Shown one piece after another: positions 7,101-40,891 of a stretch of 41,865 nucleotides of DNA. The notes under the pieces were generated by a model. That model ran no database searches. It worked only from the letters and a program-made list of their open reading frames with translations, and was not told the origin of the DNA. Each line of letters starts with the position of its first letter. Position 1 is the first letter of the stretch. Source of the stretch: Bacteroidales bacterium (GTDB taxonomy: Bacteria > Bacteroidota > Bacteroidia > Bacteroidales > JAGOPY01); the NCBI GenBank assembly GCA_046484945.1, contig JAWOHY010000198.1, positions 1 to 41,865 of the forward strand, in the 5' to 3' direction. A program made the position numbers and the translations under genes.

Positions 7101-8050
7101 GATGGAAAAGAGAGGCCTTTGCCGTGAGCGGGGGCATGAAGACCTTCAAATGGGTTTATGAGAAGAATGGCATGGGTAGCGCAGGAACTGACTGTGGCTG
7201 GCTGGATAATATCATATTCCCCTCCCCTATGGTGCTGACCATCTGGGCGGGACCGGATGATAAGGTTTGTTCAGGCGAATCCTATCTGCTGTCCAGCGCT
7301 TACGGGACTGACTATGACCAGGCCGAGTGGAACACTTCCGGCACCGGAACGTTTAACGATCAAAACATCATTAACCCCCAGTATATTCCCAGCGATGATG
7401 ACATCACTGAGGGAGAGGTTCAGCTGACACTGACCCTCTGGGGAGATGGGGGAAACATGGTTTCCGATGAAATGAGCCTGGGGTTCAGGGCTGTGCCGGA
7501 AGCACCGCCCCCCCCCCAGGGCCCGGATTATATCGATGTTTCGGTTACTCAGGTTTCAGAATACCTGGTTACAGGCATTGCCGGAGCAGATGACTATACC
7601 TGGACGCTGGAACCGGATGAAGCCGGCACCATCATCGGGCAGGATACCAATGCCACGGTAAGCTGGAATGCCGGATTCACGGGAACCGCCCATGTCACGG
7701 TCGCGGGTTGGAATGAATGCGGGACCGGACCTGTTTCACCCGCGTTGGAAGTAGTGGTGGATAATACGTTGGTGACTGTTACGGATCCACTTCCTGATGG
7801 TTCATCCATCAAGATATATCCTAATCCTGCTTCCGGCATGCTTCACCTGGAATGGCCAGACTCAACCATCGAAAACATGTCCGTCAGTATTTATGGCCTG
7901 GCGGGCAACATAGTATTTAATCAGGAAAGCGCCAGGACTGCTGGCGGGCAGATCATGACCATCGACCTTACGGCATTCTCGCCGGGGATCTATGTCATCG
8001 CACTAACCGGCAACGGGTCCAGGTTCTTCCAGAAACTGATCATCAGATAA
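4127..8050 (+). CDS. C25 gingipain-like peptidase, Arg-gingipain (Rgp)-like catalytic domain, T9SS CTD
   Basis: Signal peptide MKNLTAFFLSLLFVIQSFA (ATG 4127 preferred to TTG 4100); NYCGHGS and SVACVNG dyad; IASNQGPGDDGEYDYQH resembles the RgpB S1 segment; CTD IYPNP...GIYVI...KLIIR. Confidence 0.9.
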   Translation: MKNLTAFFLSLLFVIQSFANDWTNIRSEYPRPAEKELLSSNMEISVIRFSLDGFLTQTVTTALGEAMIISLDKATPILEQGAPDLPKMTASVIIPDLARMQIEVTEASYRDFENVIVAPSKGNLTRDIDPATVPYEFGTEYQQNAFFPGKLADMREPYIMRDHRGQTVIVYPFQYNPVTRTLRVYTDITVKISKVDDTGINPLVRAQEPDVIDAQFHHLYNRHFLNAGSSSRYTPVSEFGNILVISYGAFMNAMEPYVLWRKQVGYPIEMVDVGTIGNSTAIKSFIANYYNTKGLTFVLLVGDAAQVPTSSTSAGHSDVNYSYIVGNDHYPDLFVGRFSAENIDQVNTQVQRTLTYEQNPPTEVDWFTICTGIASNQGPGDDGEYDYQHIRNIQNNKLIPFTYTYGNELYDGSQGGNDASGNPTPTMVATDVNNGTGIINYCGHGSNTSWSTSGFSNGDVNNLVNTNMLPFIWSVACVNGNFVNTTCFAEAWLRATHNGEPTGAIAFLGSTINQSWNPPMCGQDEMNDVLVETYQNNINRTFGALSMHGCMQMNDEYGSAGFEMTDTWTCFGDPSVMVRTAVPQDMTVIHDPVILIGATQMTILCDAEGGRASLSIDGTLLCTEIIQGGSVTLNFTALNNPGSVTLTITAFNYMPYITEIEVIPASGPYVVMDAYQVNDPTGNNNGLPDYNETIHLTMTMKNMGVLDGTDVMVILSSNDPYITITDYSELFPLIPAGGTATIADAFTFFIASDVPDQHSVIFNLTADDGSDSWESMFIMDINAPVLNINSITINDNLYGNGNGELDPGERADMTINYTNSGHAVAYDIGVYLEGRSGFVEIINPTQHFNSIGFFGAFNKTFTVTVDDEAPAGITVDFVNELTMGDHFQDRTFPLKITAKCEDFETGDFTQFNWQHGGNQPWQITYQYPYQGFYSIRSGNITHNETSEIWLTYEVMSADSIIFIRKVSSESSDHLKFYINNQLMGEWSGTTGGWKREAFAVSGGMKTFKWVYEKNGMGSAGTDCGWLDNIIFPSPMVLTIWAGPDDKVCSGESYLLSSAYGTDYDQAEWNTSGTGTFNDQNIINPQYIPSDDDITEGEVQLTLTLWGDGGNMVSDEMSLGFRAVPEAPPPPQGPDYIDVSVTQVSEYLVTGIAGADDYTWTLEPDEAGTIIGQDTNATVSWNAGFTGTAHVTVAGWNECGTGPVSPALEVVVDNTLVTVTDPLPDGSSIKIYPNPASGMLHLEWPDSTIENMSVSIYGLAGNIVFNQESARTAGGQIMTIDLTAFSPGIYVIALTGNGSRFFQKLIIR

Positions 8051-12082: not shown

Positions 12083-13882
12083 ATGAACCGCTCAGTCCCC
12101 GTCATAATCCTGCTTCTTTTCAGCGTTCTTTTCACTTACGGGCAGTTCCGGGTGGTGGATGCAACAAGGATGCAGGTTATGCCTGGTCGGCAATTCATCC
12201 CGGATGTGGAGGGCAAAGTGCTGGTCAGCGATGCGGTCTATGAGCAGATAGAACAGTATGAAACGGGCCAGGTTCCCACGGTTTATCCGCTCTGGCCGGT
12301 ATCAAGGACCGGAACCGTGGAAGAGGGAGGTGTCTGGGGCAATTGTGACAACGATCCGGACCTGGAGATCATTTACGCAGTGGGTAACCAGGTATATGCT
12401 TTTAACAGCAATGGCTCCCTGGTAAGCGGCTGGCCCCGAACGCTCGATTACCCAACCGACGGTGCCCCTGCTTTCGGAGATATCGATGGTGATGGTTACG
12501 GTGAAATCGTGGTAACCACCCACCAGCCCGCCACTTTTGCCGTTGGTTCTATTTATGCTTTCGAAATCAACGGGGCAAACGTGCAGGGCTTTCCCGTCAG
12601 CACTGTCGGCGGCGCGCTCCGCACACCGGTCCTGGCTGACCTTGACGGCGACGGCGCCCTGGAGATCATCGTCACCATCAGGAAACATCCGGAAGGGTTT
12701 ATCCATGTTTACAGGGGCAATGGCACCATGTTCCCCGGCTGGCCCCAGCGGATGGATTATGTACCAGGCTCAGCCGCCGCCGCGGGCGATATCACCGGAA
12801 ACGGTGTCCCGGAGGTTATTGCCCAATCTTACTACGGGCTCCATGCCTTTACCGCCGATGGAATGCTGATGCCCGGTTTCCCCTATTACCCCGGCACCAA
12901 CAGGGTTTTTTCATATTCGACTCCCGTACTGGCCGATATCAACCAGAACGGCCTCCGGGAGATCATCTGCGGCGACCATGCACTGGATTCCGGCAATGGC
13001 GCCATTCATGTTGTCAAAAACGATGGCACAGCCTTTCCGGGCTGGCCCAAATTCACCAACGCCTGGGTTTACGGCCCGCCTTCCGTGGGGGATATCGACG
13101 GTGACGGCCTGCTCGATATTGCCGTCGGCGACCAAATGATCTCCATTACACCGCAAAATAAAGTCTACGCCTGGACCGCTGTTACAAGCAACCCCCTGCC
13201 CGGCTTTCCCATCACCGGCATTTGGGCTGTGAATTCCCAGATCATGCTGGCCGACCTCGATGGCGACGGGATGATCGAACTGATTTTCGATGATAACACC
13301 TCCGTCGGAAAATACCAGGGATACAACCATGATGGCACACCCATGGAGGGATGGCCCCTGTACCTCAACGGCAGTACTTTTTACATCTCCCCGATGATCT
13401 TCGACGTCAAACTCGACGGGATGATGGACATCTCCGGCGCCGGTTATGTACAGGCCACGAATACGACCAATATCTACTTTTGGAATGCCCACGTTGCAAT
13501 GAACAGCGAACTGGCCATACTGCCCATACTGCAGTATAACACAAGGCACAGTGGCGTTTACGGAGATTATCTCATGGTAGGGTCCCCTGAGATCCGACCC
13601 GAACCGGAAGACACCTGGGTTATTTACCCGAATCCGGCCACCACCCGGCTGAATATCAACAGAGCAAATCACGAAGTGAATGGAAATGCCGATGCTGAAT
13701 GGCATATCCATGTTTTCAGCACTGCCGGGAAACTAGTTTATCAAAATTTCATCCCTGGAGGTAATACCTCTCTGGTCGTCCAAACCTCCAGCCTGTCCCC
13801 CGGGGTTTACTGGCTTGTGATCAGAACTGACGGAAAGGCTGCGTATGTGAAGAAATTCATTGTGTTACATCATTCGGGATAA
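12083..13882 (+). CDS. FG-GAP/VCBS repeat protein with T9SS CTD
   Basis: Repeated GWP...P...(G/A)DIDGDG..EI units; signal peptide; CTD IYPNP...GVYWL...KKFIV. Confidence 0.85.
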   Translation: MNRSVPVIILLLFSVLFTYGQFRVVDATRMQVMPGRQFIPDVEGKVLVSDAVYEQIEQYETGQVPTVYPLWPVSRTGTVEEGGVWGNCDNDPDLEIIYAVGNQVYAFNSNGSLVSGWPRTLDYPTDGAPAFGDIDGDGYGEIVVTTHQPATFAVGSIYAFEINGANVQGFPVSTVGGALRTPVLADLDGDGALEIIVTIRKHPEGFIHVYRGNGTMFPGWPQRMDYVPGSAAAAGDITGNGVPEVIAQSYYGLHAFTADGMLMPGFPYYPGTNRVFSYSTPVLADINQNGLREIICGDHALDSGNGAIHVVKNDGTAFPGWPKFTNAWVYGPPSVGDIDGDGLLDIAVGDQMISITPQNKVYAWTAVTSNPLPGFPITGIWAVNSQIMLADLDGDGMIELIFDDNTSVGKYQGYNHDGTPMEGWPLYLNGSTFYISPMIFDVKLDGMMDISGAGYVQATNTTNIYFWNAHVAMNSELAILPILQYNTRHSGVYGDYLMVGSPEIRPEPEDTWVIYPNPATTRLNINRANHEVNGNADAEWHIHVFSTAGKLVYQNFIPGGNTSLVVQTSSLSPGVYWLVIRTDGKAAYVKKFIVLHHSG

Positions 13883-13898
13883 AACAATCATCAAACTG

Positions 13899-16800
13899 AT
13901 GAAAAAACTGATTCTGCTACCATGGCTGTTTATGACCATCGGCATGATCTCCCAGGACATGCCTGATGCTTACCGGCTGTATGTTGAGAAGCACCCGCAA
14001 GGGCCCTCCCTGAACAAATGGGACTCCATCCGCCTGGTGAACGTGCCCGAAAAAACCCTTCCCGGTAACCTGAAAAACAGAACGCTTCCGCCCATCGTCG
14101 ATAACTCCGCATTGCCTTACCTCCGTCCGGTATTTAACCAGGAAGGCCCCAGTTGCGGGCAGGCGGCCATGATCGGATATAATTTTACATACGAAATAAA
14201 TTGCCTTCGGGATCTTTCTTCCCATGATTCAAGCAACCAATACCCCACCCACTTCACATTCAATTTCATGAATGGTGGTAACGGATGGTACGGTGTCAGC
14301 TACTTTCACAGCATAGAAATGCTGAAAGCAACCGGTTGCATGACTGTGCCAGAATACGGCGGGATGCACGATGATGGCCGCAGGTGGATAGACGGTTATG
14401 ATGTATATCATAGCGGCATGCACAACCGGATCAAAGACTTCTACAGTATTCACACCGGGACAACGGATGGCATCCTGGCGCTGAAAAACTGGCTGTACGA
14501 CCATATGGGAGATCAAGCGCACGGCGGTGTGGCCAGCTTCTATGCCAATGTCCCCTGGAATGCCAAAATATTGAACGATACCACACCCGAAGGCGGTAAA
14601 CATGTGATGACAGCCTGGTACCCGGCGGCTACCCATGCCATGACCATTATCGGTTATAACGACTCGATACGGTATGATTACAACGGCGACGGACTGTATA
14701 CCAACCACATCGATCTGAATGGCGACGGGATCATCGATGCCCGCGACTGGGAGATCGGTGGGGTGAAATTCATCAACAGCCATGGCATCGATGCACAGGA
14801 CAGCGGTTATTGCTATATGATGTATAAATGCCTGGCCGAAACCTTTGAAAACGGCGGCGTATGGAACCAGGCGGTACATATCCTTTACCCTTATGAGGAG
14901 TTCTCACCTTTAATGACGTACAAGGTCACCATCAAACATGATTACCGGGAAAAAGTGAAAGTGATGGCCGGGGTGTCGTCGGATACAAGCGACTTAATTC
15001 CCAGGTGGATCATGGACTTTCCCATCATCAATTACCAGGGGGGGGATCACTACATGCAGGGCCAGGACACCGCAGAATACCTGAAATACCTGGAATTCGG
15101 ACTGGATATCAGCCCATTGCTCACACATGTCAGCCCCGGGAATCCTGCAAAGTTTTTCCTGATTGTCGATGAGAATGATCCCTATGGCGAAGGTGACGGC
15201 GAAATCATCTCCTTCTTCCTGATCGATTATACCAGCGGAATGGTGGAAGTCATTTCTGATGAAGTACCGCTGACGCTGCTCAACCATAACCGAACAACTG
15301 CAGCGCTCGTTCATACGCCGGTTTTTGATAAAGTAGCCGTTACCACGGAGGTGCTGCCGGCATTCACAACGGATGACCCCTATCAATTCCAGCTCAATGC
15401 CACCGGTGGCACACCTGCGTATGACTGGACATTTCGGCATTATTACCGGATGGAACAGTCACAGACTTCATTTCCCATGATCATGGACAACCAGGTCCTG
15501 CCTGATACTTCAGGCGACTCACTTGTAGCGATCCCATTAGGCTTTGAATTTCCCTTCTTTGGAAAAAAATATGATACCGTCTATATTCACATTGATGGCC
15601 ATATTCAATTTGACAAAACACAATTGCCCTGGCCTTACCTGTTTGATTACGACCTGCATCTGCGGAGCAATCGTATCATCACCCCGATGACGCACCAAAA
15701 CTTCACCATTTTCGATGATGAGGATGGGGCGTGGTATGAAACAGACTCCATCTCAGCTACCTTCCGGTGGAAATTGTCATGGAGCCCAAAACCCATGTCC
15801 ACAGAGTTTAATTTTGCCGTTAAGCTCTGGCATGACGGCAAAACCGAATTTATATACGGCCCGGCCACCCTGGATGGATTGAAATGGATAGGTGGTATTT
15901 CGGCAGGAAATATGCTGGATTACTTTGAGTCGCCTTTATACAGGTCACATGCCATTTCCCCGGGGCACCGGGTTGCCTTCCTGCCGGCCCGCTTTCCGCA
16001 AGGACTGTCACTCTCGGATGATGGTTGGCTTGAAGCAGAAATGCTGGATGAAACTTACATCTATGACCTGTCGGTGAGGGTGACCGATAAAAACCGTGTC
16101 GCTGATGTAAAAGACTTCCAGTTGTCTTCCGGCCCCCTGGCTTGGTTTACCGTCCATTCTCAGGGCGACAGCCTGATCCATTACGGAGATTCCGTTATCC
16201 TGGATCTCAAATTACGGAATCATGGCGCCCAAACACTCGGGGAACTGATAATGAACATTTCCAGCCATGACGACTTCATCATCTTGCAGGATAGCAGTGT
16301 TGTCATAGGTGACCTGTTGCCCGGGGAGGAGATCATCATCTCTGGTGCTTTTTCTTTTCTGGTATCTGTGGAAGTGCCCGATCAGCATGATCTTTCTCTT
16401 TCGGCGGTATTGCTGTCCGACAGCAGTTCATGGCAAAAAGCGCTTCTTTTCAAAGCCCACGCCCCGGATCTCCGGATCAGGCAGGTAATAGTGGATGATG
16501 GGGATAACAACATCCTGGATCCGGGAGAAACAGCGGATTTCCTGGTCACGCTGCAAAATATGGGAACCGCCGGTATCCATGAAGTGATCGGGCAACTTGT
16601 ATCTCTCAATCCCGAATTGCAGGTATTGGGAAACCCGGTGCAGTCATATGGAACTTTTACAAAAGGCGCCACGATTTCCCGTTCATTCACCCTGTATGCC
16701 GAGGAATCAATACCCTGTGGATTCCCTGCAAAGCTTGTCTTCACCACCGGATCAGAACCCGGGCTTTCTTTCTCTGATACCCTTGAGATAAGGATCGGCA

Positions 16801-17732
16801 AGACGCCCGTCCTGCTGATCGATCTGGATCCAAACACTCATTCGGGCCCCGTGATCCGTGACATGCTGGATGATATGAATATTATCAATGTCTATAGCAC
16901 ATTCATCCCTGAAGGCATTGACCAATTCCAGTCTCTCTTCATCAGCCTGGGATACCACGGTTCGAACCATGTCCTGACATGGCATGAAGGCAGGGTGCTG
17001 GCAGATTACCTTGATGGCGGGGGCTATATTTACATGGAAGGGAAAAAGACCTGGAAAGACGACCCACAGACCCCTGTGCACAGCCGCTTCAACATTACCC
17101 CTTTGAATGGCGTTACCCTTTGCGATACCCTTTCCGGATCGGAAAATACATTTACCCATGGTATCCGTTTACTGAACAATGCCGAATTTCCGTTCAGTTT
17201 TTATTACCTGGACCCTATCTCACCCGCCTATGCCGTTCTGCACAATGGCTTACAGGGCAGGCCCTGCGCCGTTGCCCATGATGCAGGCTTTTTTAAAACT
17301 ATCGGATCGCTCTTTGAACTTGGTACACTCGGCGATCTCCCCCCTTCTACCACCTCAGAATTGCTGCAGCGATACCTGGATTTCTTCGGCATCTATGTCA
17401 ACCCAACCCGTATCGATGAAATCACCAGAGAAGCAAACGATTTTTCCATCAGCATTTACCCAAATCCTGCGAAACAGATAATTAATGTCAGCTTAGATTT
17501 AACGGCTAACGGCAAACGGCTAACGGCAAACGGCAAACGGCAAACGGCAAACGGGCAAACCTCGCTCATCATCACCGACCTCTTCGGCCGGACTCTGATG
17601 CAAATTCAAAATGTACAAAGTTTCCCCTTCCCGATTAATGTTTCATCGATCCCTGACGGATTACATATTATCCAGTTGATAACCACAGACGGGCAATCGG
17701 CTTCGGCAAAATTTATTAAGACTTCAGATTAG
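13899..17732 (+). CDS. Papain-like (C1) cysteine peptidase, multidomain, T9SS CTD
   Basis: NQEGPSCG (oxyanion Gln and catalytic Cys), HAMTIIGY (His), FINSHG (Asn); DDGDNNILDPGE Ig-like domain; IYPNP CTD. ATG 13899 gives a signal peptide. Confidence 0.82.
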   Translation: MKKLILLPWLFMTIGMISQDMPDAYRLYVEKHPQGPSLNKWDSIRLVNVPEKTLPGNLKNRTLPPIVDNSALPYLRPVFNQEGPSCGQAAMIGYNFTYEINCLRDLSSHDSSNQYPTHFTFNFMNGGNGWYGVSYFHSIEMLKATGCMTVPEYGGMHDDGRRWIDGYDVYHSGMHNRIKDFYSIHTGTTDGILALKNWLYDHMGDQAHGGVASFYANVPWNAKILNDTTPEGGKHVMTAWYPAATHAMTIIGYNDSIRYDYNGDGLYTNHIDLNGDGIIDARDWEIGGVKFINSHGIDAQDSGYCYMMYKCLAETFENGGVWNQAVHILYPYEEFSPLMTYKVTIKHDYREKVKVMAGVSSDTSDLIPRWIMDFPIINYQGGDHYMQGQDTAEYLKYLEFGLDISPLLTHVSPGNPAKFFLIVDENDPYGEGDGEIISFFLIDYTSGMVEVISDEVPLTLLNHNRTTAALVHTPVFDKVAVTTEVLPAFTTDDPYQFQLNATGGTPAYDWTFRHYYRMEQSQTSFPMIMDNQVLPDTSGDSLVAIPLGFEFPFFGKKYDTVYIHIDGHIQFDKTQLPWPYLFDYDLHLRSNRIITPMTHQNFTIFDDEDGAWYETDSISATFRWKLSWSPKPMSTEFNFAVKLWHDGKTEFIYGPATLDGLKWIGGISAGNMLDYFESPLYRSHAISPGHRVAFLPARFPQGLSLSDDGWLEAEMLDETYIYDLSVRVTDKNRVADVKDFQLSSGPLAWFTVHSQGDSLIHYGDSVILDLKLRNHGAQTLGELIMNISSHDDFIILQDSSVVIGDLLPGEEIIISGAFSFLVSVEVPDQHDLSLSAVLLSDSSSWQKALLFKAHAPDLRIRQVIVDDGDNNILDPGETADFLVTLQNMGTAGIHEVIGQLVSLNPELQVLGNPVQSYGTFTKGATISRSFTLYAEESIPCGFPAKLVFTTGSEPGLSFSDTLEIRIGKTPVLLIDLDPNTHSGPVIRDMLDDMNIINVYSTFIPEGIDQFQSLFISLGYHGSNHVLTWHEGRVLADYLDGGGYIYMEGKKTWKDDPQTPVHSRFNITPLNGVTLCDTLSGSENTFTHGIRLLNNAEFPFSFYYLDPISPAYAVLHNGLQGRPCAVAHDAGFFKTIGSLFELGTLGDLPPSTTSELLQRYLDFFGIYVNPTRIDEITREANDFSISIYPNPAKQIINVSLDLTANGKRLTANGKRQTANGQTSLIITDLFGRTLMQIQNVQSFPFPINVSSIPDGLHIIQLITTDGQSASAKFIKTSD
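17500..17555 (+). repeat. Eight (T/A)AACGGC heptamer units inside the C1 peptidase CTD coding region
   Basis: taacggc taacggc aaacggc taacggc aaacggc aaacggc aaacggc aaacggg; translates as LTANGKRLTANGKRQTANG. Confidence 0.95.
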
Positions 17733-19757: not shown

Positions 19758-21755
19758 ATGAGAAACATCATACCTTTCCTGGTTATCATCTTCCTGATCC
19801 CATTATTGATCTCCCAAAAACCGGTCGGAAAAAATGAAAAACCTTATGTCGACGGTGAGATCATGGTGAAGATGCGTTCAGATATTTCACCGGTGCAGCA
19901 GGAAGAAATATTCCAGGCTTTCCTGAACGAATACCAGTATCTCGAAATCGAGCCCATCCGGAAATTATCCAATAGGCTGAATATACACCTGTTACGATTT
20001 AAAACCGGAATATTTAACGATGAAAGGGTCTTGCAGGAAATTAAAAACCACCCGTATGTGGAACTTGCCCAGTTCAACCATTTCATCGAACACCGCCAGC
20101 TGATCCCTTCGGATCAGTATTTCGACCTGCAATGGAACATGCACAATACCGGCCAGACAGGCGGCACTGACGATGCCGACATCGACGGACCGGAGGCATG
20201 GGAAATCGGCACTTCAGGGATCACAGCCACCGGCGACACGATTGTGATCGCCGTTATCGACGATGGATTTGACCTGACCCATGAAGACCTTCGTTTCTGG
20301 AAAAACTATCTGGAGATTCCCGGCAACGGTATCGACGATGACAGCAATGGGTATATTGATGATTACCATGGCTGGAATGTTTATTCCAATTCCGGGAATA
20401 TCATCGAAAGGGACCATGGTACGCATGTCACCGGGATTGCGGCGGCTAAAGGAAATAATGATAAAGGCGTGACAGGGGTGAACTGGAATGTCAGGGTAAT
20501 GCCGGTGGTTGGGTCAGGCACTGTGGAGTCGTACGTAGTGGCAGCTTACGCTTATGTGCTCGAGATGCGTGCCCGGTATAATGAAAGCGATGGCACAAAA
20601 GGGGCTTTCATTGCTTCGACCAATGCATCCTTTGGAGTTAATATGGGGCAGCCGGAAGATTTCCCTATCTGGGGAATGATGTATGATTCGCTGGGTGTGC
20701 TGGGTGTGCTGAGCGCCGGGGCAACGGCAAACGCCAACTGGAACATCGATGAAGTCGGCGATATCCCGACAGCATTCCCGAGCGAATTCCTGATCTCCGT
20801 CACAAATACGGATAATAACGACAACCTGAGTACTTTTGCCGGTTACGGCCTCACGACCATTGATCTGGGGGCGCCGGGCACCCAGGTCTATTCAACCCGA
20901 CAAGGCAATGCATATGGTAATAAAACGGGCACTTCGATGGCATCGCCGCACGTGGCAGGGGCCATTGCATATATGTTCTCCATTGCAGATACGGCTTTTA
21001 TGGAAGCCTATCACAACGATCCGGCCGGTATGGCGCTGGTCATCAAGCAGTACATTCTGGATGGCACCGACCCTCTTCCCACTTTGCTAGGCAAATCGGT
21101 TACCGGTGGCAGGCTTAATATTTACAACGCAGCCATGCGGATGCTCTATCCCGATATCATCTTCAGCCCGATGAGTATCCTGAAGCAGCTGCCTCCGGAT
21201 GAACAGGAAAGTGAGATGCTTTCGTTTACCAACAACACCGGCTCCACAATGAATTACTATATCACTTATCCCGATACACTGGAATGGATCAGCCTTAGCG
21301 GAACCCTTACCGGCACGCTGCCGGCCGGTGGAAATGGCAATATCACCGTTCATTTCGATTCGGAAGGAATTATATCAGACTCACTTTTAACGTACCTGAC
21401 ATTCATCTATGGAATCGACAGCCTGTTCAATGTGCCGGTGCATTTGTTTGTTAATCCGTTTGTGGGAGGCAGGGAATATGAGGGCATGGAGGCATGGGGG
21501 CAAGGAGGCATGGCATTATGGCCGAACCCGGCGAGAGAAGTGTTAAGGTTTAAGTTTTCAGGTTTAAGTTCGGGCAGTAATTATACTCTGAGCATAGTCA
21601 ACTCTTCCGGAACGATCCTGCAGGAAATCACGATTACAGGCGAACAGGCCGGATTACAACTAAATACCGGATCGTACCGTGCCGGAAGTTACTTCGTCAT
21701 CCTTAAACAGGGGAATAAGATGATCGATTCAAAAAAATTCATCATCCTCAAATAA
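19758..21755 (+). CDS. S8 subtilisin-like serine peptidase with T9SS CTD
   Basis: Catalytic triad AVIDDG, DHGTHVTG, GTSMASPHVAG; N-terminal propeptide; LWPNP...GSYFV...KKFIILK. Confidence 0.92.
   Translation: MRNIIPFLVIIFLIPLLISQKPVGKNEKPYVDGEIMVKMRSDISPVQQEEIFQAFLNEYQYLEIEPIRKLSNRLNIHLLRFKTGIFNDERVLQEIKNHPYVELAQFNHFIEHRQLIPSDQYFDLQWNMHNTGQTGGTDDADIDGPEAWEIGTSGITATGDTIVIAVIDDGFDLTHEDLRFWKNYLEIPGNGIDDDSNGYIDDYHGWNVYSNSGNIIERDHGTHVTGIAAAKGNNDKGVTGVNWNVRVMPVVGSGTVESYVVAAYAYVLEMRARYNESDGTKGAFIASTNASFGVNMGQPEDFPIWGMMYDSLGVLGVLSAGATANANWNIDEVGDIPTAFPSEFLISVTNTDNNDNLSTFAGYGLTTIDLGAPGTQVYSTRQGNAYGNKTGTSMASPHVAGAIAYMFSIADTAFMEAYHNDPAGMALVIKQYILDGTDPLPTLLGKSVTGGRLNIYNAAMRMLYPDIIFSPMSILKQLPPDEQESEMLSFTNNTGSTMNYYITYPDTLEWISLSGTLTGTLPAGGNGNITVHFDSEGIISDSLLTYLTFIYGIDSLFNVPVHLFVNPFVGGREYEGMEAWGQGGMALWPNPAREVLRFKFSGLSSGSNYTLSIVNSSGTILQEITITGEQAGLQLNTGSYRAGSYFVILKQGNKMIDSKKFIILK
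21483..21514 (+). repeat. Four GGCATGGA-like octamers in the S8 linker before the CTD
   Basis: ggcatgga ggcatggg ggcaagga ggcatggc; encodes GMEAWGQGGMA. Confidence 0.8.
21539..21574 (+). repeat. GGTTTAA-family arm copy inside the S8 CTD
   Basis: agtgttaaggtttaagttttcaggtttaagttcggg, 32/36 identical to 28614-28649. Confidence 0.85.
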
Positions 21756-21761
21756 CAAAAT

Positions 21762-21810
21762 CCCCAACTTAAACCTTAAACCTCAAACCTTAAACCTAAA
21801 ACTAAACACT
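21762..21810 (-). repeat. GGTTTAA heptamer array between the convergent S8 and thiolase genes
   Basis: Plus strand reads ccccaacttaaaccttaaacctcaaaccttaaacctaaaactaaacact; overlaps the thiolase stop codon. Confidence 0.9.
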
Positions 21811-23052
21811 TCCACGTTTATAAACCGCTGCGACAACCGTCACATCATCCCCACCCATATTGATGCTGAGTGCATAAGGTTTTTCAGGAGAAATAGCGAT
21901 CTGTGCATCGCCCGCTTTTCCGGTCAGTTGTTCCCATACGGTCACAGCCATGTGCACGCCGGTGCCGCCGGTCGGGTGCCCCCAGCCGATCAAACCGCCG
22001 GTAGTATTCATCGGGATCATGCCATCGCGGGAAGTGTGGCCTTCCGCCACAAACTGCGCCCCTTTGCCTTGTCCGGCAAAGCCGAGCGCTTCAGTGGCAA
22101 GGACTCCGGCAATGGAAAAGCAATCGTGCGTTTCGATCGTCGCCAGGTCTTGAATGCCAATGCCGGCATCTTCCAGTGCCCCCAAAGCAGCCTTTTTGAT
22201 CGTGATCAGTTCGGTCGGGTCGACAGGATCTTCCGTAAGATTACGTACTTTGTGGGCCCAGGAAACGATCTCTACCGCCTCGCTCTTCGGTATGCCGCAA
22301 CGCTTCAGCCCCTCTTCGGAACAAATTACCACGCATGAAGCCCCGTCGGAAACCTTGGAGCAATCCAGCACGTTCAGGTGGTCGACAAAAGCGGCGCCAT
22401 TAGGCTTCATCTTATTATACAGCGCCTCCAGGTCTTCGACCTTGTTTTCATACTCCTGTGCCGTGGGGCAAAGCCTGGCATTTTCGATCGCATTGCGGAA
22501 CCACCGTCCCATCCCCATCCGGGCATAATCCATGCCGTATTTCTCATAATATGCCCCTGCCCTGTCGCTGAACTGGCCCGGGAAGAAATAGGCATGCCCG
22601 TTTTTCCGCTTCTGGAACCAGCCGGCTCCCGCCAGGATATCCGCGCCGTAAATAGCTTTGACCGTGTTCTGCACTTCAATGCCGACTGTCAGTGAAACAT
22701 CCGCCGTGCCGGCCAGTACGTTCTTGATGCTGGTAACCAGTGCCAGGCCGCCGGAGGCGCAGGCCCCTTCCACCCGGAGCGCGGGTTTGAACTGCAATTC
22801 AGGATCAGCCATCGGGAAAAAGCCACCCAGGTGCGCCTGCTTGTTGAATCGTGCTGCCATAAAATTCCCCACCACGCACTCATCGACATGCTTCGCCCCG
22901 CCGATCTGTTTCAGCGTGCCCTGCACCGCTTCGTTAAAATAATGCTCAATGCCCGGACGGACCTTCTTCGGATTGAACTCGCGACGGCCGGTACCCATCG
23001 AAACCGTGTTGAACCCGGCTGCCAAATAGATTTTTTTATGTGGTTTGCTCAT
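21802..23052 (-). CDS. Thiolase (acetyl-CoA acyltransferase), SCP2-type
   Basis: EGACASG catalytic Cys, HDCF motif, GHPTGGTG; C-terminal NMGG instead of CxGGG. Confidence 0.88.
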   Translation of the reverse strand: MSKPHKKIYLAAGFNTVSMGTGRREFNPKKVRPGIEHYFNEAVQGTLKQIGGAKHVDECVVGNFMAARFNKQAHLGGFFPMADPELQFKPALRVEGACASGGLALVTSIKNVLAGTADVSLTVGIEVQNTVKAIYGADILAGAGWFQKRKNGHAYFFPGQFSDRAGAYYEKYGMDYARMGMGRWFRNAIENARLCPTAQEYENKVEDLEALYNKMKPNGAAFVDHLNVLDCSKVSDGASCVVICSEEGLKRCGIPKSEAVEIVSWAHKVRNLTEDPVDPTELITIKKAALGALEDAGIGIQDLATIETHDCFSIAGVLATEALGFAGQGKGAQFVAEGHTSRDGMIPMNTTGGLIGWGHPTGGTGVHMAVTVWEQLTGKAGDAQIAISPEKPYALSINMGGDDVTVVAAVYKRGSV

Positions 23053-23065
23053 TAGACTTTATTAT

Positions 23066-23107
23066 TTGTAATTCGTTGTAATTCGTTGTAATTCGTTGTA
23101 ATTACAA
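23066..23107. repeat. TTGTAATTCG 10-mer x3.8 ending in a short palindrome
   Basis: ttgtaattcg x3 followed by ttgtaattacaa. Confidence 0.9.
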
Positions 23108-25275: not shown

Positions 25276-25338
25276 AGAAGATAGAAGTCAGAAGTCAGTA
25301 GACAGAAGACAAAAAACACGAAACAAAAAACACGAAAC
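25276..25338 (+). repeat. Composite heptamer array: AGAAGTC-type then AAAAAAC/ACGAAAC-type
   Basis: agaagat agaagtc agaagtc agtagac agaagac aaaaaac acgaaac aaaaaac acgaaac. Confidence 0.85.
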
Positions 25339-25370
25339 AAACTTTTTCATCATATTCCAAACTTTATATG

Positions 25371-25389: not shown

Positions 25390-25869
25390 ATGAGAACCGT
25401 TGTGCAAAATACCAGTATCATCTTCCTGGCAGCCCTGCTGATCATGGCAACGGGCGGGTTTTCGGTTTATGAACACTTCTGCCGTTGTGCCGGGGAGAAA
25501 ACCGCTTCGATATTCGTGGAGGCCCCCTGTCACCATGAAAGTGAATCTTCAGCGGCTTCCTGCTGTATGATAGCTGATCATACATGCTGTGGCACTGATA
25601 AAACCGAAAAAAACTGCCATGACGACGATTGCTGCCAGACAACCGAAACCTATCTGAAAATCTCTGACGATTTTAATTATCAGTTTGATAAAATCTCTCT
25701 CAAATTCATTGTCAGCTTTGTGCAAATACTGACGGGCAGCAGCCTCCTGGCAGTCGAGCAGGATTATACCACACCCGTTCAAAAATTCAATGACATCCCT
25801 CCCCCGCTCTACGGCCGGGAGCTGGTGAACCATCTCCACCAGCTCAAAACAGACCATTGCCTGGTTTAA
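25390..25869 (+). CDS. HYC_CC_PP-like Cys/His-rich protein
   Basis: N-terminal hydrophobic helix, HFC, several CC pairs, C-terminal PPP; lies upstream of a TonB receptor and an HMA gene. Confidence 0.75.
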   Translation: MRTVVQNTSIIFLAALLIMATGGFSVYEHFCRCAGEKTASIFVEAPCHHESESSAASCCMIADHTCCGTDKTEKNCHDDDCCQTTETYLKISDDFNYQFDKISLKFIVSFVQILTGSSLLAVEQDYTTPVQKFNDIPPPLYGRELVNHLHQLKTDHCLV

Positions 25870-28613: not shown

Positions 28614-28964
28614 AGTGTTGAGGTTTAGGGTTTAAGGTTTAAGTTCGGGAATTTTTTTAACAGAGTGGGTATATTTTTCATTTTTCTGGATTAATAGATA
28701 AAATCCATGAATTATGAAAGAAAGTATTGTTGGTGGTAAAGCATATTTTTATACAATGAGTATTATTCCGCTCTATCAAAAAATGTTACAACTTTCAAGA
28801 CCTTCTCAAAGAGATCGATGAAATCATTAAAATGCTAACAAAAATTGTTAAAACCACAAAATCTCAAGAAATAAAATAATAGCCCGAACCTAAACCTTAA
28901 CCCTTAAACCTCAACACTTTAAAATATTCCCCCACTTAAACCTTAAACCTTAAACCTTAAACCT
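28614..28964. mobile_element. Repeat-flanked four-helix-bundle cassette 1 (defective)
   Basis: 36-bp inverted arms 28614-28649 and 28883-28918 (33/36) made of GGTTTAA units; extra (CTTAAAC)n array about 28935-28964; AT-rich interior carrying a gene remnant. Mobility is inferred, not shown. Confidence 0.65.
28714..28879 (+). pseudogene. Internally deleted four-helix-bundle (23S rRNA IVP family) gene
   Basis: ATG 28714 gives MKESIVGGKAYFYTMSIIPLYQKM (family N-terminus). The +1 frame gives FQDLLKEIDEIIKMLTKIVKTTKSQEIK* (family C-terminus). The central Q..RS..S..AN..E core is missing. Confidence 0.75.
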
Positions 28965-28965
28965 A

Positions 28966-29670
28966 TCATGCAAGCCCTTTTACCCTCGGAATGCCGGGGA
29001 TAAAGTCCTTCAGGTAAAACGGTTCGAAGTAGGCCGTGTTTTCGAATTGCTGCCGGCGAAACTTCTCTTCCGCCAGGGGGATCATGAATTTGGCGGAAGG
29101 GCGGAAATCATCCAGGAAGACAGCATTGGGATGGTTTTGCAGCAGGGGCTTGCATTTTGCCGCACCATCGCCTGCAAAAACGACCGTATGATCCCTGAGT
29201 TCTTCCGTGAAGGATTCTTCCGTAATGATCTCGGCGAGGATTTCCCGGACGGGATGGAGTCCCTGGTCGTAAAGGGCACTGTAAACTTCCATCCGTTTCG
29301 CATCGATCATCGGGCAGAAGAGGGATGGAGTCCCTGTTGGCAGGGACTCCATCCCTGCCATCCCCGCCGCCATAGCCTGTAGCGTACCAATGGCAATCAA
29401 CGGTTTATCCAGCGCATAGCAAATACCTTTGGCGGTGGAAACACCAATCCGCAAACCGGTATAGGACCCCGGCCCCATGCTGACCGATACGGCGTCGAGT
29501 GAGATAAATGGCCAGCCGCTTTCACGCATCATCTCTTCGATAAAAACGGTGACCACTGAGGAATGAATATTTTTCTGACTGCTTTCACGCAGAAATTTGA
29601 GCTGTCCTCTCTCCGACAGGGCTAGCGAGCAGACCTGGGTGGCTGTTTCAATATGTAAGATTCGGGGCAA
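28966..29670 (-). CDS. tsaB: tRNA threonylcarbamoyladenosine biosynthesis protein TsaB
   Basis: ILHIETATQVCS, GPGSYTGLRIG, PMIDAKRMEVY, FEPFYLKDF. Confidence 0.95.
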   Translation of the reverse strand: MPRILHIETATQVCSLALSERGQLKFLRESSQKNIHSSVVTVFIEEMMRESGWPFISLDAVSVSMGPGSYTGLRIGVSTAKGICYALDKPLIAIGTLQAMAAGMAGMESLPTGTPSLFCPMIDAKRMEVYSALYDQGLHPVREILAEIITEESFTEELRDHTVVFAGDGAAKCKPLLQNHPNAVFLDDFRPSAKFMIPLAEEKFRRQQFENTAYFEPFYLKDFIPGIPRVKGLA

Positions 29671-33574: not shown

Positions 33575-34837
33575 ATGGCATCAAAGCGCTTCATCAAAAA
33601 CCTGGTCAAGTACCTCATTATTCCCGTCGGGTTTGCCATCGGGATGACGATGGCCATTGTCTGGTCATCCGGGAATATCGTGCATGCCCCCCGACTCAAT
33701 CCGAAATACGCTTTCCCGGTCGATAGCCTCTTTATCGATCTCGACAGGATCGCCATGGATAAAAAAGGGTACATGATCGACAGTGTCTTCACTGCGCTGC
33801 AATTGCGGGCGGGGTTCAATGGTACGGTGCTGTATTCCGAAAAGGGAAGGTTGGTATTTAAAAAGGCTTACGGCTACGAAGATTTTAAAACCAGGAAAAG
33901 GCTTACCACCCAATCGGCATTTCAGCTGGCTTCGGTATCGAAAATGTTCACAGCCGCTGCCATTATGATCCTCCGGGAGGAAGGGTTGCTGAACTATGAC
34001 GATTCACTTGAGCTTTATATCCCTGGCTTACCCTATCCGGGAGTCACGATACGGCACCTGCTGATCCACCGTTCCGGAATACCTGATTATATGTATTTTT
34101 CAGATGAACACTGGGGCCAGAAAAGGCCGATCAGTAACGATGACATGATTTGGATCATGCAGAAAAAAAAACCGCCGCGTTTCTTTTCAGCCGGAAACGG
34201 CTTCGATTATTGCAACTCCAATTATGCCCTGCTGGCATCGGTGGTGGAACATATCACAGGGAAAGCGTTTGGGGATTTTCTCCGGGAAAGGATCTTCGAT
34301 CCGCTAGACATGCATGATTCTTTTCTCTACCGCCTGGAACCCGGTGAGTCGGTCCCCAGGGCAGTGCCGGTGGGTGTCCCCGGGCATCGCACCTACCGCG
34401 GCAGGACCATCGTGGAACAAAATTTCTATCAAAACGGTGTAGTGGGCGATAAAGGGATCTATTCAACCGTTGAAGATCTTTTCAAATTCGATCAGGCGCT
34501 TTACAATGGTCTCCTGGTAAGTGAAGAAACCCTGATGGAGGCTTTTACCCCCGGCAGCCCCAGAAGGTCGAGGCACAGGGATAACTATGGTTTTGGCTGG
34601 CGCCTGAAGGCGGGACGGTCTAACACAATATACCATTATGGCTGGTGGAAAGGATTCCGCACCTATTTCATCCGCGATATGGAACAGGAAAAAACGATCA
34701 TCGTATTGACAAACACAACCCGTCTGCTTTCTTCTGGCAGACTATATGGGATCCTCGACAATCAACAGTTCGAACTCGGTCCCATTTCCGCCATCGATCC
34801 CAAAGGCAGCAGGAAGTCGTTAGTCGTCAGTCGTTAG
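33575..34837 (+). CDS. Serine hydrolase, beta-lactamase class C/PBP-like
   Basis: SVSK (SxxK), YCN, LLIHRSG, YHYGWW; TM helix after ATG 33575; promoter-like TATTTTTG at 33555-33562. Confidence 0.88.
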   Translation: MASKRFIKNLVKYLIIPVGFAIGMTMAIVWSSGNIVHAPRLNPKYAFPVDSLFIDLDRIAMDKKGYMIDSVFTALQLRAGFNGTVLYSEKGRLVFKKAYGYEDFKTRKRLTTQSAFQLASVSKMFTAAAIMILREEGLLNYDDSLELYIPGLPYPGVTIRHLLIHRSGIPDYMYFSDEHWGQKRPISNDDMIWIMQKKKPPRFFSAGNGFDYCNSNYALLASVVEHITGKAFGDFLRERIFDPLDMHDSFLYRLEPGESVPRAVPVGVPGHRTYRGRTIVEQNFYQNGVVGDKGIYSTVEDLFKFDQALYNGLLVSEETLMEAFTPGSPRRSRHRDNYGFGWRLKAGRSNTIYHYGWWKGFRTYFIRDMEQEKTIIVLTNTTRLLSSGRLYGILDNQQFELGPISAIDPKGSRKSLVVSR

Positions 34838-34877
34838 TCATCAAGAAACAAAAAACAAGAAACAAGAAACAAGAAAC
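34815..34877 (+). repeat. Composite heptamer array: AGTCGTT-type x4 then AAGAAAC-type x5
   Basis: agtcgtt agtcgtc agtcgtt agtcatc aagaaac aaaaaac aagaaac aagaaac aagaaac. Confidence 0.9.
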
Positions 34878-38581: not shown

Positions 38582-38623
38582 GTCGTTGGCCGTTGGCCGT
38601 TTGCCGTTTGCCGTTTACCGTTA
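38582..38623 (-). repeat. Six AAACGGC-family heptamers (GCCGTTT on the plus strand)
   Basis: gtcgttg gccgttg gccgttt gccgttt gccgttt accgtta. Confidence 0.9.
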
Positions 38624-38632
38624 TAAATAAAA

Positions 38633-39206: not shown

Positions 39207-39269
39207 CAAAAACAAAAAACACGAAACAACAAACACGAAACAATAAACACGAAACAAGAAACCAGATAC
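39207..39269 (+). repeat. ACGAAAC/AAnAAAC alternating heptamer array
   Basis: caaaaac aaaaaac acgaaac aacaaac acgaaac aataaac acgaaac aagaaac cagatac. Confidence 0.88.
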
Positions 39270-40233: not shown

Positions 40234-40891
40234 AATGTTGTATGTTGTATGTTGTATGTATTATTTAATAAGGATTTGATAATAAGACAATTATCATAAA
40301 CTTAATACATATCACATAATACATACCACATACAACATCTTTCAGTCGTCTTTACGCCGCATCACTATTTCTTCTGGCGGTGTTTCTTGTTGCCATAAAA
40401 ATAGCGATCAACTCCTTGCATTCCACTAATTGGTTTTGCAGAACTACTGGGTCTTTACACAATTTCGCTTCCTCAACAACCTCAAGATTAACCTCAGTTT
40501 CTTTTAGCTCTTTCACAACAAGTCCGATCTTATGAATAAAATCTTTTCTTGTTTCTGCCATTTGTGCTTCGCCATAATTTAAAGCTGCTGAAGTTGAGGA
40601 CCTTACCATTTGCATGTAAAGATGCCTGGATGCAAAAACGGGTTTAAGAATTTGGTCAATAGAAACTATCCTGGCAGAAAACTGCACAAGCCTTTTTTGT
40701 AATTGCGTCTTCATACTATTCTTTCTCTGTTAATCAGGAAAGAAGCTGAAATATACCCGGTGATTTTGAAAAAAAATTAGGACTGTGGTATGCATGATGT
40801 GATATGTAGTATGTGATATGTAGTATGTGGTATTTATTAAGTATTTTAAATCCTTATAAAATACTACATACCACATACTACATACAACATT
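40234..40891. mobile_element. Repeat-flanked four-helix-bundle cassette 2 (intact gene)
   Basis: Nested inverted arms of TATGTnG heptamers: outer 40234-40277/40848-40891 (40/44) and inner 40300-40338/40804-40842 (34/39). Mobility is inferred, not shown. Confidence 0.7.
40352..40714 (-). CDS. Four-helix-bundle protein (23S rRNA intervening-sequence protein/Avd-like family)
   Basis: 120 aa; QMVRSSTSAALNYGEAQ...SRKDF-like TRKDFIHK...KELKET family signature. Confidence 0.92.
   Translation of the reverse strand: MKTQLQKRLVQFSARIVSIDQILKPVFASRHLYMQMVRSSTSAALNYGEAQMAETRKDFIHKIGLVVKELKETEVNLEVVEEAKLCKDPVVLQNQLVECKELIAIFMATRNTARRNSDAA

Follow-up and report, generated by a model that had tools for sequence, protein, structure and literature searches.

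Inverted heptamer-repeat arms, one of them translated, at the 3′ end of an S8 peptidase gene in a Bacteroidales genome

Introduction

Rickettsia palindromic elements (RPEs) are dispersed hairpin-forming repeats that are translated within open reading frames (ORFs) and tolerated in surface or linker segments of the protein; their in-frame insertion into protein genes was reportedly described by Ogata and colleagues in 2000. At the 3′ ends of genes, short repeats of the repetitive extragenic palindromic (REP)/bacterial interspersed mosaic element (BIME), Correia, and enterobacterial repetitive intergenic consensus (ERIC) families often occur as inverted pairs, forming hairpins that can protect or end transcripts, and Correia elements are cut by RNase III. 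Here, we describe a pair of inverted heptamer-repeat arms at the 3′ end of an S8 (subtilase) peptidase gene of a Bacteroidales bacterium, where the left arm is read in frame within the C-terminal sorting domain (CTD) of a predicted type IX secretion system (T9SS) substrate and the right arm begins just past the stop codon. "The window" denotes the whole 41,865-nucleotide (nt) stretch that was analyzed (contig JAWOHY010000198.1 of GenBank assembly GCA_046484945.1), which is contig C29 of the genome labeled G000; other contigs of this genome are given as C-numbers.

Two further systems involve four-helix-bundle proteins of the kind encountered here. Ralph and McClelland reportedly found, in 1993, intervening sequences (IVSs) in 23S rRNA with an ORF of the four-helix-bundle family PF05635 ("S23p") between inverted repeats, and Alayyoubi and colleagues are said to have dealt, in 2013, with diversity-generating retroelements (DGRs) that carry the four-helix-bundle protein Avd. 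Heptanucleotide simple sequence repeats (SSRs) are known as the short tandemly repeated repetitive (STRR) sequences of cyanobacteria and as long simple sequence repeats (LSSRs; Mrazek et al. 2007 as cited in PMC4679880), and TAACTGA repeats are given in PMC4679880 for Beggiatoaceae, Cyanobacteria, and some Bacteroidetes.

Results

A repeat copy is read in frame within the sorting domain

The left arm, at 21539-21574, makes up codons 595 to 606 of the S8 gene and is translated as VLRFKFSGLSSG. It sits inside the CTD directly after the PNPA motif, and from this position in the Pfam match and from known CTD structures, we take the arm to be the first β strand and the following turn of the domain. 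As a first-pass annotation of this DNA had pointed out, the segment is identical at 32 of 36 positions to an arm at 28614-28649 that belongs to a repeat-flanked cassette elsewhere in the window ("cassette 1"; Table 1), both ends (AGTGTT and AAGTTCGGG) included, and is nevertheless read in frame. The 36-nt consensus of the family in the genome, AGTGTTG-(AGGTTTA)x3-AGTTCGGG, would read VLRFKV*GLSSG in the S8 frame, and the coding copy departs from it precisely at the stop. With three substitutions and both ends intact, this copy is as near to the consensus as many intergenic ones: Two of the changes turn GTT TAA into TTT TCA and thereby remove the TAA, such that the third unit is GTTTTCA in place of GGTTTAA where the frame would meet the stop, and the third is a silent TTG to TTA. 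These data show that the coding arm is an array-derived repeat copy, edited just enough to keep the frame open, and we infer that this segment of the S8 CTD tolerates repeat-derived sequence.

The identity of the host gene is supported by profile searches. PF00082 matched residues 159 to 411 (E 2e-29), while PF18962 matched residues 587 to 663 of 665 (37.2 bits against a cut-off of 27), at the C-terminal extremity as for a T9SS type A CTD, and TIGR04183 matched residues 588 to 663 (31.3 bits against a cut-off of 23). Across the genome, PF18962 yielded 130 matches, 113 of them above the Pfam cut-off, which suggests that the organism uses a T9SS. Directly before its WPNPA motif, the S8 protein carries a linker encoded by an 8/16-nt tandem array (GGCATGGA), which also precedes the CTDs of two paralogs on contig C174.

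The arm recurs widely in the genome. The assembly is a fragmented metagenome-assembled genome (3.08 Mb, 273 contigs, 94.6% complete), and all repeat counts from it are therefore lower bounds. The consensus matched 24, 34, and 46 sites at up to 4, 6, and 8 substitutions, respectively, while the reversed pattern matched none at any of these levels. Since 19 of the 46 copies retained both the outer AGTGTT and the inner GTTCGGG within one mismatch, the arm unit has a fixed length and defined ends, and the coding arm displays the full set of family features (outer AGTGTT, three to four GGTTTAA units, inner GTTCGGG). Within the window, GGTTTAAGGTTTAA occurred 14 times at up to two mismatches, against a mean of 0.31 in 100 shuffles of which none reached 14; the resemblance is hence not due to chance. 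The earlier view of the arm as a defined unit, as opposed to a random microsatellite, is upheld by this fixed length of ~36 nt, the conserved ends, and the cassette-like geometry of orientation.

The right arm pairs with the coding arm and ends the convergent gene

We confirmed the previously noted inverted array from 21762 to 21810. Aligned with the coding arm from their inner ends, it is complementary to that arm at 30 of 36 positions: In this fixed register, 29 of 35 pairs are Watson-Crick and the 36th is an A-T pair. An inverted-repeat search returned arms at 21543-21574 and 21762-21793 (32 nt, 88% complementary, 187 nt apart). Both arms are built from the same unit family and face the interior with inner ends TTCGGG and CCCCAA, and they enclose residues 607 to 665, i.e., most of the CTD coding sequence, in the cassette-like arrangement that the annotation had described. 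Among the 113 CTD genes, S8 alone had a cognate inverted match in the downstream 150 nt (score 20, runner-up 11), and the maximum among 1123 non-cognate pairs of a CTD start with a downstream 150-nt segment was 13. The suggestion that the arms fold the 3′ end of the mRNA holds at the level of prediction: The predicted fold has a minimum free energy (MFE) of −74.7 kcal/mol (z −4.57, with 0 of 100 shuffles as stable), and the long-range stem between the arms appears in the MFE structure as well as in the centroid. An intrinsic-terminator scan gave no terminator-like site in the 46-nt spacer between the S8 and thiolase genes, and no Rfam family matched at gathering score across the whole window.

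The convergent thiolase-domain gene takes its two final codons and its stop from the right arm as well, as had been proposed. AGT GTT TAG is the reverse complement of 21802-21810, and the ORF ends ...KRGSV. Following a conserved VYK (VFR in genomes G012 and G013), the thiolase tail comprises four residues in G000 (RGSV) and in G004 (RASV), compared to two residues in 4 and three in 9 of 13 orthologs outside these two genomes. The arm-bearing thiolase is thus one to two residues longer than the orthologs outside the lineage, in answer to the C-terminus comparison that the annotation had called for. Our comparison set consisted of 10 genomes of the genus, namely G000 and nine other species, which are few, related, and non-independent. 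Among these, only G000 and G004 have the S8-thiolase adjacency; S8 is convergent, in seven of the remaining eight genomes, on another gene that ends ...EWLA(R/K), the neighbor's end in G003 not having been read. The right arm remained with S8 through this rearrangement, and the thiolase now terminates within it.

The two arms differ in repeat family between species, mostly together

The S8 gene is present in all 10 genomes, and the arrangement is inherited with it: The CTD, counted from PNP through to the stop, measures 231 nt in nine genomes and 234 nt in one, and both arms occur in 8 of the 10. Left and right arms are both built of GGTTTAA units in G000, G004, G008, and G002, of ATGTTGA units in G006 and G007, and of ATTTTAA units in G009, while G003 is discordant: A left arm of GGTTTAA type there faces a right arm of AATTTTR units, the right side alone having switched. 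In G001 and G005, the right arm is absent and the left arm has decayed (lag-7 identity of 10 and 12 of 28, compared to 14 to 23 in the other eight). In the fixed register, cognate arms form 22 to 31 Watson-Crick pairs of 35, with at least two types of pair at 14 of the 35 positions; only 0.86% of 40,320 permutations of the partners reached the cognate pairing total, and duplex energies show the same species blocks as the arm families. Across species, the arm is translated as VLRFKF, GLSVKV, MLNVEG, or ILNFKF, and the coding arm deviates from its array in the third unit, at the would-be stop, in all species, a change for which a single base suffices in G007. The aligned arms show that the heptamer family has changed in concert on both sides across related species.

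The genomes also differ in the repeats that they contain. At up to two mismatches, a GGTTTAA 22-mer matched 59 times in G000, 171 times in G008, 2 times in G006, 6 times in G007, and not at all in G009, whereas the corresponding counts for an ATGTTGA 22-mer were 88, 5, 155, 113, and 82. The reversed control pattern (GAATTTG units) happened to be abundant in G006 (244) and G009 (67) and absent from G000, another sign of species-specific repertoires. The S8 left arm of G007 and of G009 nevertheless agrees in family with the right arm of the same gene, and differs from the paralogous CTD of its genome. From this, and from the cognate downstream match that S8 alone has among 113 CTD genes, we conclude that a local coupling of the S8 arms probably acts on top of the genome-wide turnover.

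Heptamer arrays in other reading frames, in spacers, and around PF05635 genes

Heptamer periodicity (at least 17 of 28 in the first 90 nt) was present at 13 of 113 CTD starts compared to 70 of 18,753 background coding windows, where the 13 include paralogs and are therefore non-independent. The coding CTD arrays represent at least six unit families (AGTTCAA, GAGTTCT, AACGGCA, CATTTCG, GGTTTAA-like, and others). One of them, of 8.4 AACGGCA copies, lies in the neighboring gene at 13860-17732; its best inverted match is found 21 kb off at 38584-38630 (47 nt, 83% complementary) and not beside its own gene. A leucyl-tRNA synthetase (LeuRS) gene (TIGR00396, 896 bits) contains, at C105:10846-10926 (locus L063), two adjacent in-frame arrays with units GAGTTAT and TGACGGC that span 27 codons. 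These codons immediately precede the conserved TTRPDTLFGAT motif, and the Thermus thermophilus enzyme (1h3n) has a gap at this position. The in-frame arrays in CTDs and LeuRS thus indicate that reading frames do take up such arrays, which persist where the protein can accommodate them. Two paralogous ORFs of ~1400 amino acids (aa) on contig C66 each carry a 10-copy AACACGA array (C66:3546-3618 and C66:10856-10928) that is read in frame as ETRNTKLETRNTKHETRNTKHE; judged solely from the motif LLIVEDNADL that follows the array, they are probably sensor kinases.

Period 7 dominates the tandem repeats of the genome, with 663 of 2312 rows from Tandem Repeats Finder (TRF). Merging gave 504 heptamer arrays in 94 unit classes, of which 386 lie outside any ORF of at least 120 aa; among the 118 that lie inside such ORFs, many of the ORFs are artifacts of the arrays themselves. 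For 57 of 331 pairs of neighboring arrays within 2 kb, the two are inverted copies, able to form hairpins of ~30 to 35 base pairs, and the loop sizes are bimodal, being either short (12 to 150 nt) or ~440 to 480 nt with a PF05635 gene of 114 to 147 aa inside. PF05635 matched 20 times in the genome, and inverted tandem arrays flank 17 of the 19 matches that could be evaluated. Arrays outside ORFs favor convergent spacers and avoid divergent ones, with 58/138/37 arrays between convergent/tandem/divergent ORFs against a background of 110/473/175 (chi-square p 3e-4), counts that rest on crude ORF calls.

In the window itself, cassette 1 derives by internal deletion from an intact cassette on contig C137, and the second cassette, of another heptamer family, holds an intact PF05635 gene (E 1.5e-9; Table 1). 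Between the S8 arms (21575-21761), no PF05635 gene or remnant was found, the interior being the in-frame rest of the CTD. Inverted arrays of one unit family also bracket ordinary ORFs of 226 to 430 aa (C11:890-2470, C113:2055-3122, C241:26275-27475, C241:58724-59610, C264:6545-7886, C267:1774-2539, and C42:24269-25200), the one on C11 having a CTD match.

Some further repeats were observed alongside. Just upstream of the thiolase start, at 23066-23103, 3.8 perfect copies of a 10-nt unit (TTGTAATTCG) stand in tandem; on contig C175, this unit also builds the inverted arms that flank a PF05635 gene. Compound two-unit arrays at 25276-25341, 34815-34877, and 39210-39266 of the window end in A-rich units (AAACACG, CAAGAAA, AAACAAG). 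Several genes, e.g., the CTD genes at C64:57498, C24:15526, and C91:14147, are followed by hairpins (CCAACGACTAAAGCCGTTGG) of a separate REP-like family. The array at 25276-25341 ends ~50 nt upstream of an ORF start at 25390, a position that recalls the start-proximal TAACTGA repeats in the available text of PMC4679880.

Table 1. Coordinates in the window of the S8 locus, its neighbors, and related heptamer-repeat features.
Feature	Position	Strand	Basis or remark
AACGGCA array, 8.4 copies, in frame in the CTD of the gene at 13860-17732	17501..17560	+	TRF
S8 (subtilase) peptidase gene, 665 aa, with T9SS C-terminal sorting domain	19758..21755	+	ORF and profile matches
8/16-nt tandem array (GGCATGGA), in-frame linker EGMEAWGQGGM directly before WPNPA	21478..21513	+	TRF rows 21483-21513 and 21478-21513
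Coding region of T9SS type A sorting domain (CTD)	21516..21746	+	PF18962 positions 1-75, 41.4 bits
Left (coding) arm, in-frame heptamer arm copy	21539..21574	+	33/36 to genome consensus
Interior between arms: CTD residues 607-665, stop codon, 6 nt	21575..21761	+	Single copy in genome
Right arm, inverted heptamer array of seven units, fills the 46-nt spacer	21762..21810	-	Begins 6 nt past the S8 stop
Thiolase-domain (acetyl-CoA acetyltransferase-like) gene, convergent with S8	21802..23052	-	NF004936, E 1.9e-73, below its curated cut-off
Cassette 1, a decayed PF05635 gene between arms 28614-28649 and 28885-28920	28614..28920	+	35-aa remnant ORF 28714-28821
Lone arm of the cassette 1 family, directly next to the stop of the convergent gene 28966-29670 (-)	28929..28964	-	Repeat search
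Second cassette, heptamer family ATGTTGT/ACATACC	40234..40891	not assigned	PF05635 gene 40352-40714 (-)

A proposed split hairpin repeat and its alternatives

The explanation that we favor, if with confidence only somewhat above even, is a repeat-derived 3′-end hairpin that is split by the stop codon, where the left arm has become coding and the arms are kept alike by array copying under selection for an open frame. A dispersed heptamer block of fixed length would have been taken into the S8 reading frame; templated copying between arrays would maintain the likeness of the arms, with gene conversion or template switching via the hairpin as candidate routes, along with exchange among the genomic arrays at large; and selection would then strip stop codons from the coding copy. 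That the pair is retained as a 3′-end hairpin, serving termination or RNA protection for both convergent transcripts, we consider about evenly balanced, because the stems show no excess of G-U pairs and the right arm no compensation. The predicted long-range stem and a spacer free of terminator-like sites and Rfam matches are consistent with such a role.

Several observations weigh against this explanation. The coding arms of paralogous CTDs switch family between species although they lack an inverted partner, so part of the agreement between left and right arms at S8 could reflect a genome-wide turnover of array families. These paralogous arms are moreover well formed (lag-7 identity of 15 to 20 of 28), and a partner is therefore unnecessary for keeping a coding arm. 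As the gene tree is close to a polytomy, the independent family switches number two or three at most. Among stem mismatches, G-U did not exceed A-C, either in 10 PF05635 cassettes (5 versus 7, sense strand) or in the pair table of the S8 orthologs (~8 versus ~10 by manual count), and compensation in the right arm for the stop-avoiding unit of the left arm was never seen among the S8 orthologs.

Much of this would be expected if the arms were neutral selfish or structural DNA, made similar by processes at the DNA level (quasipalindrome template switching or ectopic conversion), with no role in RNA and with a CTD that tolerates the copy. We regard this alternative as possible but doubtful. The stems without G-U bias, the uncompensated unit at the stop, and the partnerless coding arms of the paralogs, which persist and switch family with the repertoire of their genome, all agree with it, as does the presence of arrays in numerous further settings, among them LeuRS and a histidine-kinase linker. 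Against it, 8 of 10 species retain the right arm directly past the S8 stop even though families have turned over, the right arm stayed with S8 when the neighboring gene changed, arrays are over-represented between convergent genes, and the left arm has decayed in both species that have no right arm.

A bolder and rather unlikely possibility is that the inverted arrays and the Avd-like PF05635 genes that they enclose are an undescribed recombination system. Such a system would rewrite short dispersed tracts, also within reading frames, with arrays as junctions at which CTDs are duplicated or swapped, orphan CTDs as donors, and S8 as a junction that has become fixed in the form of a split coding/non-coding hairpin.

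It seems improbable that the locus is a mobile cassette with most of the CTD as its cargo, the arms of which would move or exchange CTD modules between genes, as the first-pass annotation had proposed. The geometry of the PF05635 cassettes, with outer AGTGTT and inner TTCGGG/CCCGAA, is indeed shared, and an arm-bearing CTD subfamily occurs on unrelated passengers, namely S8, a 528-aa protein without Pfam family, and a 1106-aa protein with a Reelin-B-like domain. The array linker that S8 has in common with the C174 paralogs likewise speaks for exchange, as do CTD-only orphan ORFs, two on C84 and one on C131. The DNA of one of them (C84a) is 91 to 92% identical to the C174 CTDs while the sequence upstream is 27% identical; since orphan CTDs thus have unrelated upstream DNA, CTD modules duplicate apart from their passengers. 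The orphan ORFs (C84:10208-10795 and C131:7591-7875) begin with (M/V)PCHCEMRN(D/E)YPNP, follow GGTCATACG-type arrays, and share the arm-like codons, and the homology of the duplicated paralogous CTDs starts at YPNP beside the arm. In a further copy (C118:~7950-8000), the frame ends shortly past the arm, in sequence that follows the paralog's stop in G004.

Exchange of the S8 CTD itself was not borne out. The 187-nt interior is unique in the genome (blastn, with the self match alone below E 0.01), and the closest other CTD in the genome shares 38% protein identity. The module is inherited with the gene in 10 genomes at a nearly constant length of 231 to 234 nt, and the proposed comparison of CTD and passenger trees gave no supported conflict between two trees that are both nearly unresolved (G000+G004 was recovered in both and G003+G005 in the passenger tree only). 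The inheritance of the S8 CTD looks vertical from these comparisons. At the paralogous and orphan modules, no inverted arm partner was found. Contigs from four sediment-metagenome runs held no inverted or excised form of the locus, which is weak evidence as contigs drop rare variants. Contig "joints" at the arms carry other letters between their sides and look like copies of the hairpin repeat from elsewhere, and one diverged metagenome contig retains the S8-arm-thiolase order with a longer right arm.

Coincidence or protein convergence, i.e., a CTD strand that needs such residues and low-complexity DNA that supplies the resemblance, is hardly credible: The peptide does fit the alternating hydrophobic pattern that would be expected of a β strand and heptamer arrays are low-complexity sequence, but the arm matches the consensus at 33 of 36 positions with both non-repetitive ends where the reversed control gives 0, and the idea is contradicted by wholesale swaps of the peptide between species (VLRFKF, MLNVEG, ILNFKF) that parallel the downstream arm in its DNA family, because selection on the protein would not yield swaps matched to a DNA family.

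Discussion

If the coupling between the left and right arm is real, 12 residues of a secretion signal would be dictated by whichever repeat family is in current use, and the locus would serve as a natural experiment in which the constraint of non-coding structure on protein sequence can be studied. The data further point to a genome-wide homogenization of short arrays at hundreds of sites, for which the abundant PF05635 proteins are candidates to take part, and the S8 locus could serve as a tractable test for the function of the long-known heptamer repeats of bacteria.

How does this locus compare with described systems? With RPEs, it shares the translated in-frame copy of a repeat, as do the arrays in LeuRS. 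It differs in that the whole palindrome of an RPE lies inside the ORF, whereas here, the right arm lies past the stop codon, and in that an RPE is a unique sequence of 100 to 150 nt, whereas the arm is a tandem heptamer block whose family changes between species at the same site. Compared to REP/BIME elements, where each REP copy is an imperfect palindrome and extragenic, a single arm is here a direct tandem array without self-complementarity, and the left one is coding. We rejected Y1 (RAYT-type) transposases as mobilizers: The four PF01797 matches in the genome are flanked by unrelated hairpins or by none, and not by heptamer arrays, two of them (C215:158-793 and C41:7142-7872) by longer hairpins of their own with scores of 40 and 65.

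The PF05635 cassettes resemble the 23S rRNA IVSs in having a PF05635 gene in the loop of a long inverted-repeat stem; unlike the IVSs, they lie between protein-coding genes and have stems of heptamer arrays, and the loop at S8 holds CTD codons. DGRs are similar in their four-helix-bundle accessory protein, in the replacement of sequence at the 3′ end of a target gene, and in a hairpin past the replaced region. A DGR was nevertheless discarded as a candidate, with 0 PF00078 (reverse transcriptase) matches in the 94.6% complete genome, and no template/variable repeat pair was seen for the system at the S8 locus.

The closest match in composition is that with heptanucleotide SSRs: The arrays here are mostly extragenic and made of 7-nt units, and the right arm has five to seven units among the orthologs. 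The likeness extends, within the available text of PMC4679880, to tandem 7-nt units that are mostly intergenic, uneven among lineages, of many unit types, and of unexplained function. In that same text, the repeats are mainly direct and lie just upstream of start codons, whereas the arrays described here have a fixed length, conserved ends, inverted pairing around PF05635 genes, and in-frame copies in sorting domains. A literature search returned no hairpin repeat with one arm translated, the other in the spacer, and both switching family together at an orthologous gene; for heptamer arrays with PF05635 or T9SS CTDs, it gave nothing to the point, the supplementary repeat tables of PMC4679880 being outside the search.

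By analogy, the S8 arm pair would work most like RPEs and like the 3′-end hairpin repeats (REP, Correia), while it is built of heptamer arrays of the STRR/LSSR type, and it lacks defining features of each of the families with which it was compared. Frame-invading repeats and heptamer arrays are already known; the S8 pair would be a variation on them, in the form of a hairpin repeat that is split, has a single translated arm, and co-varies from species to species.

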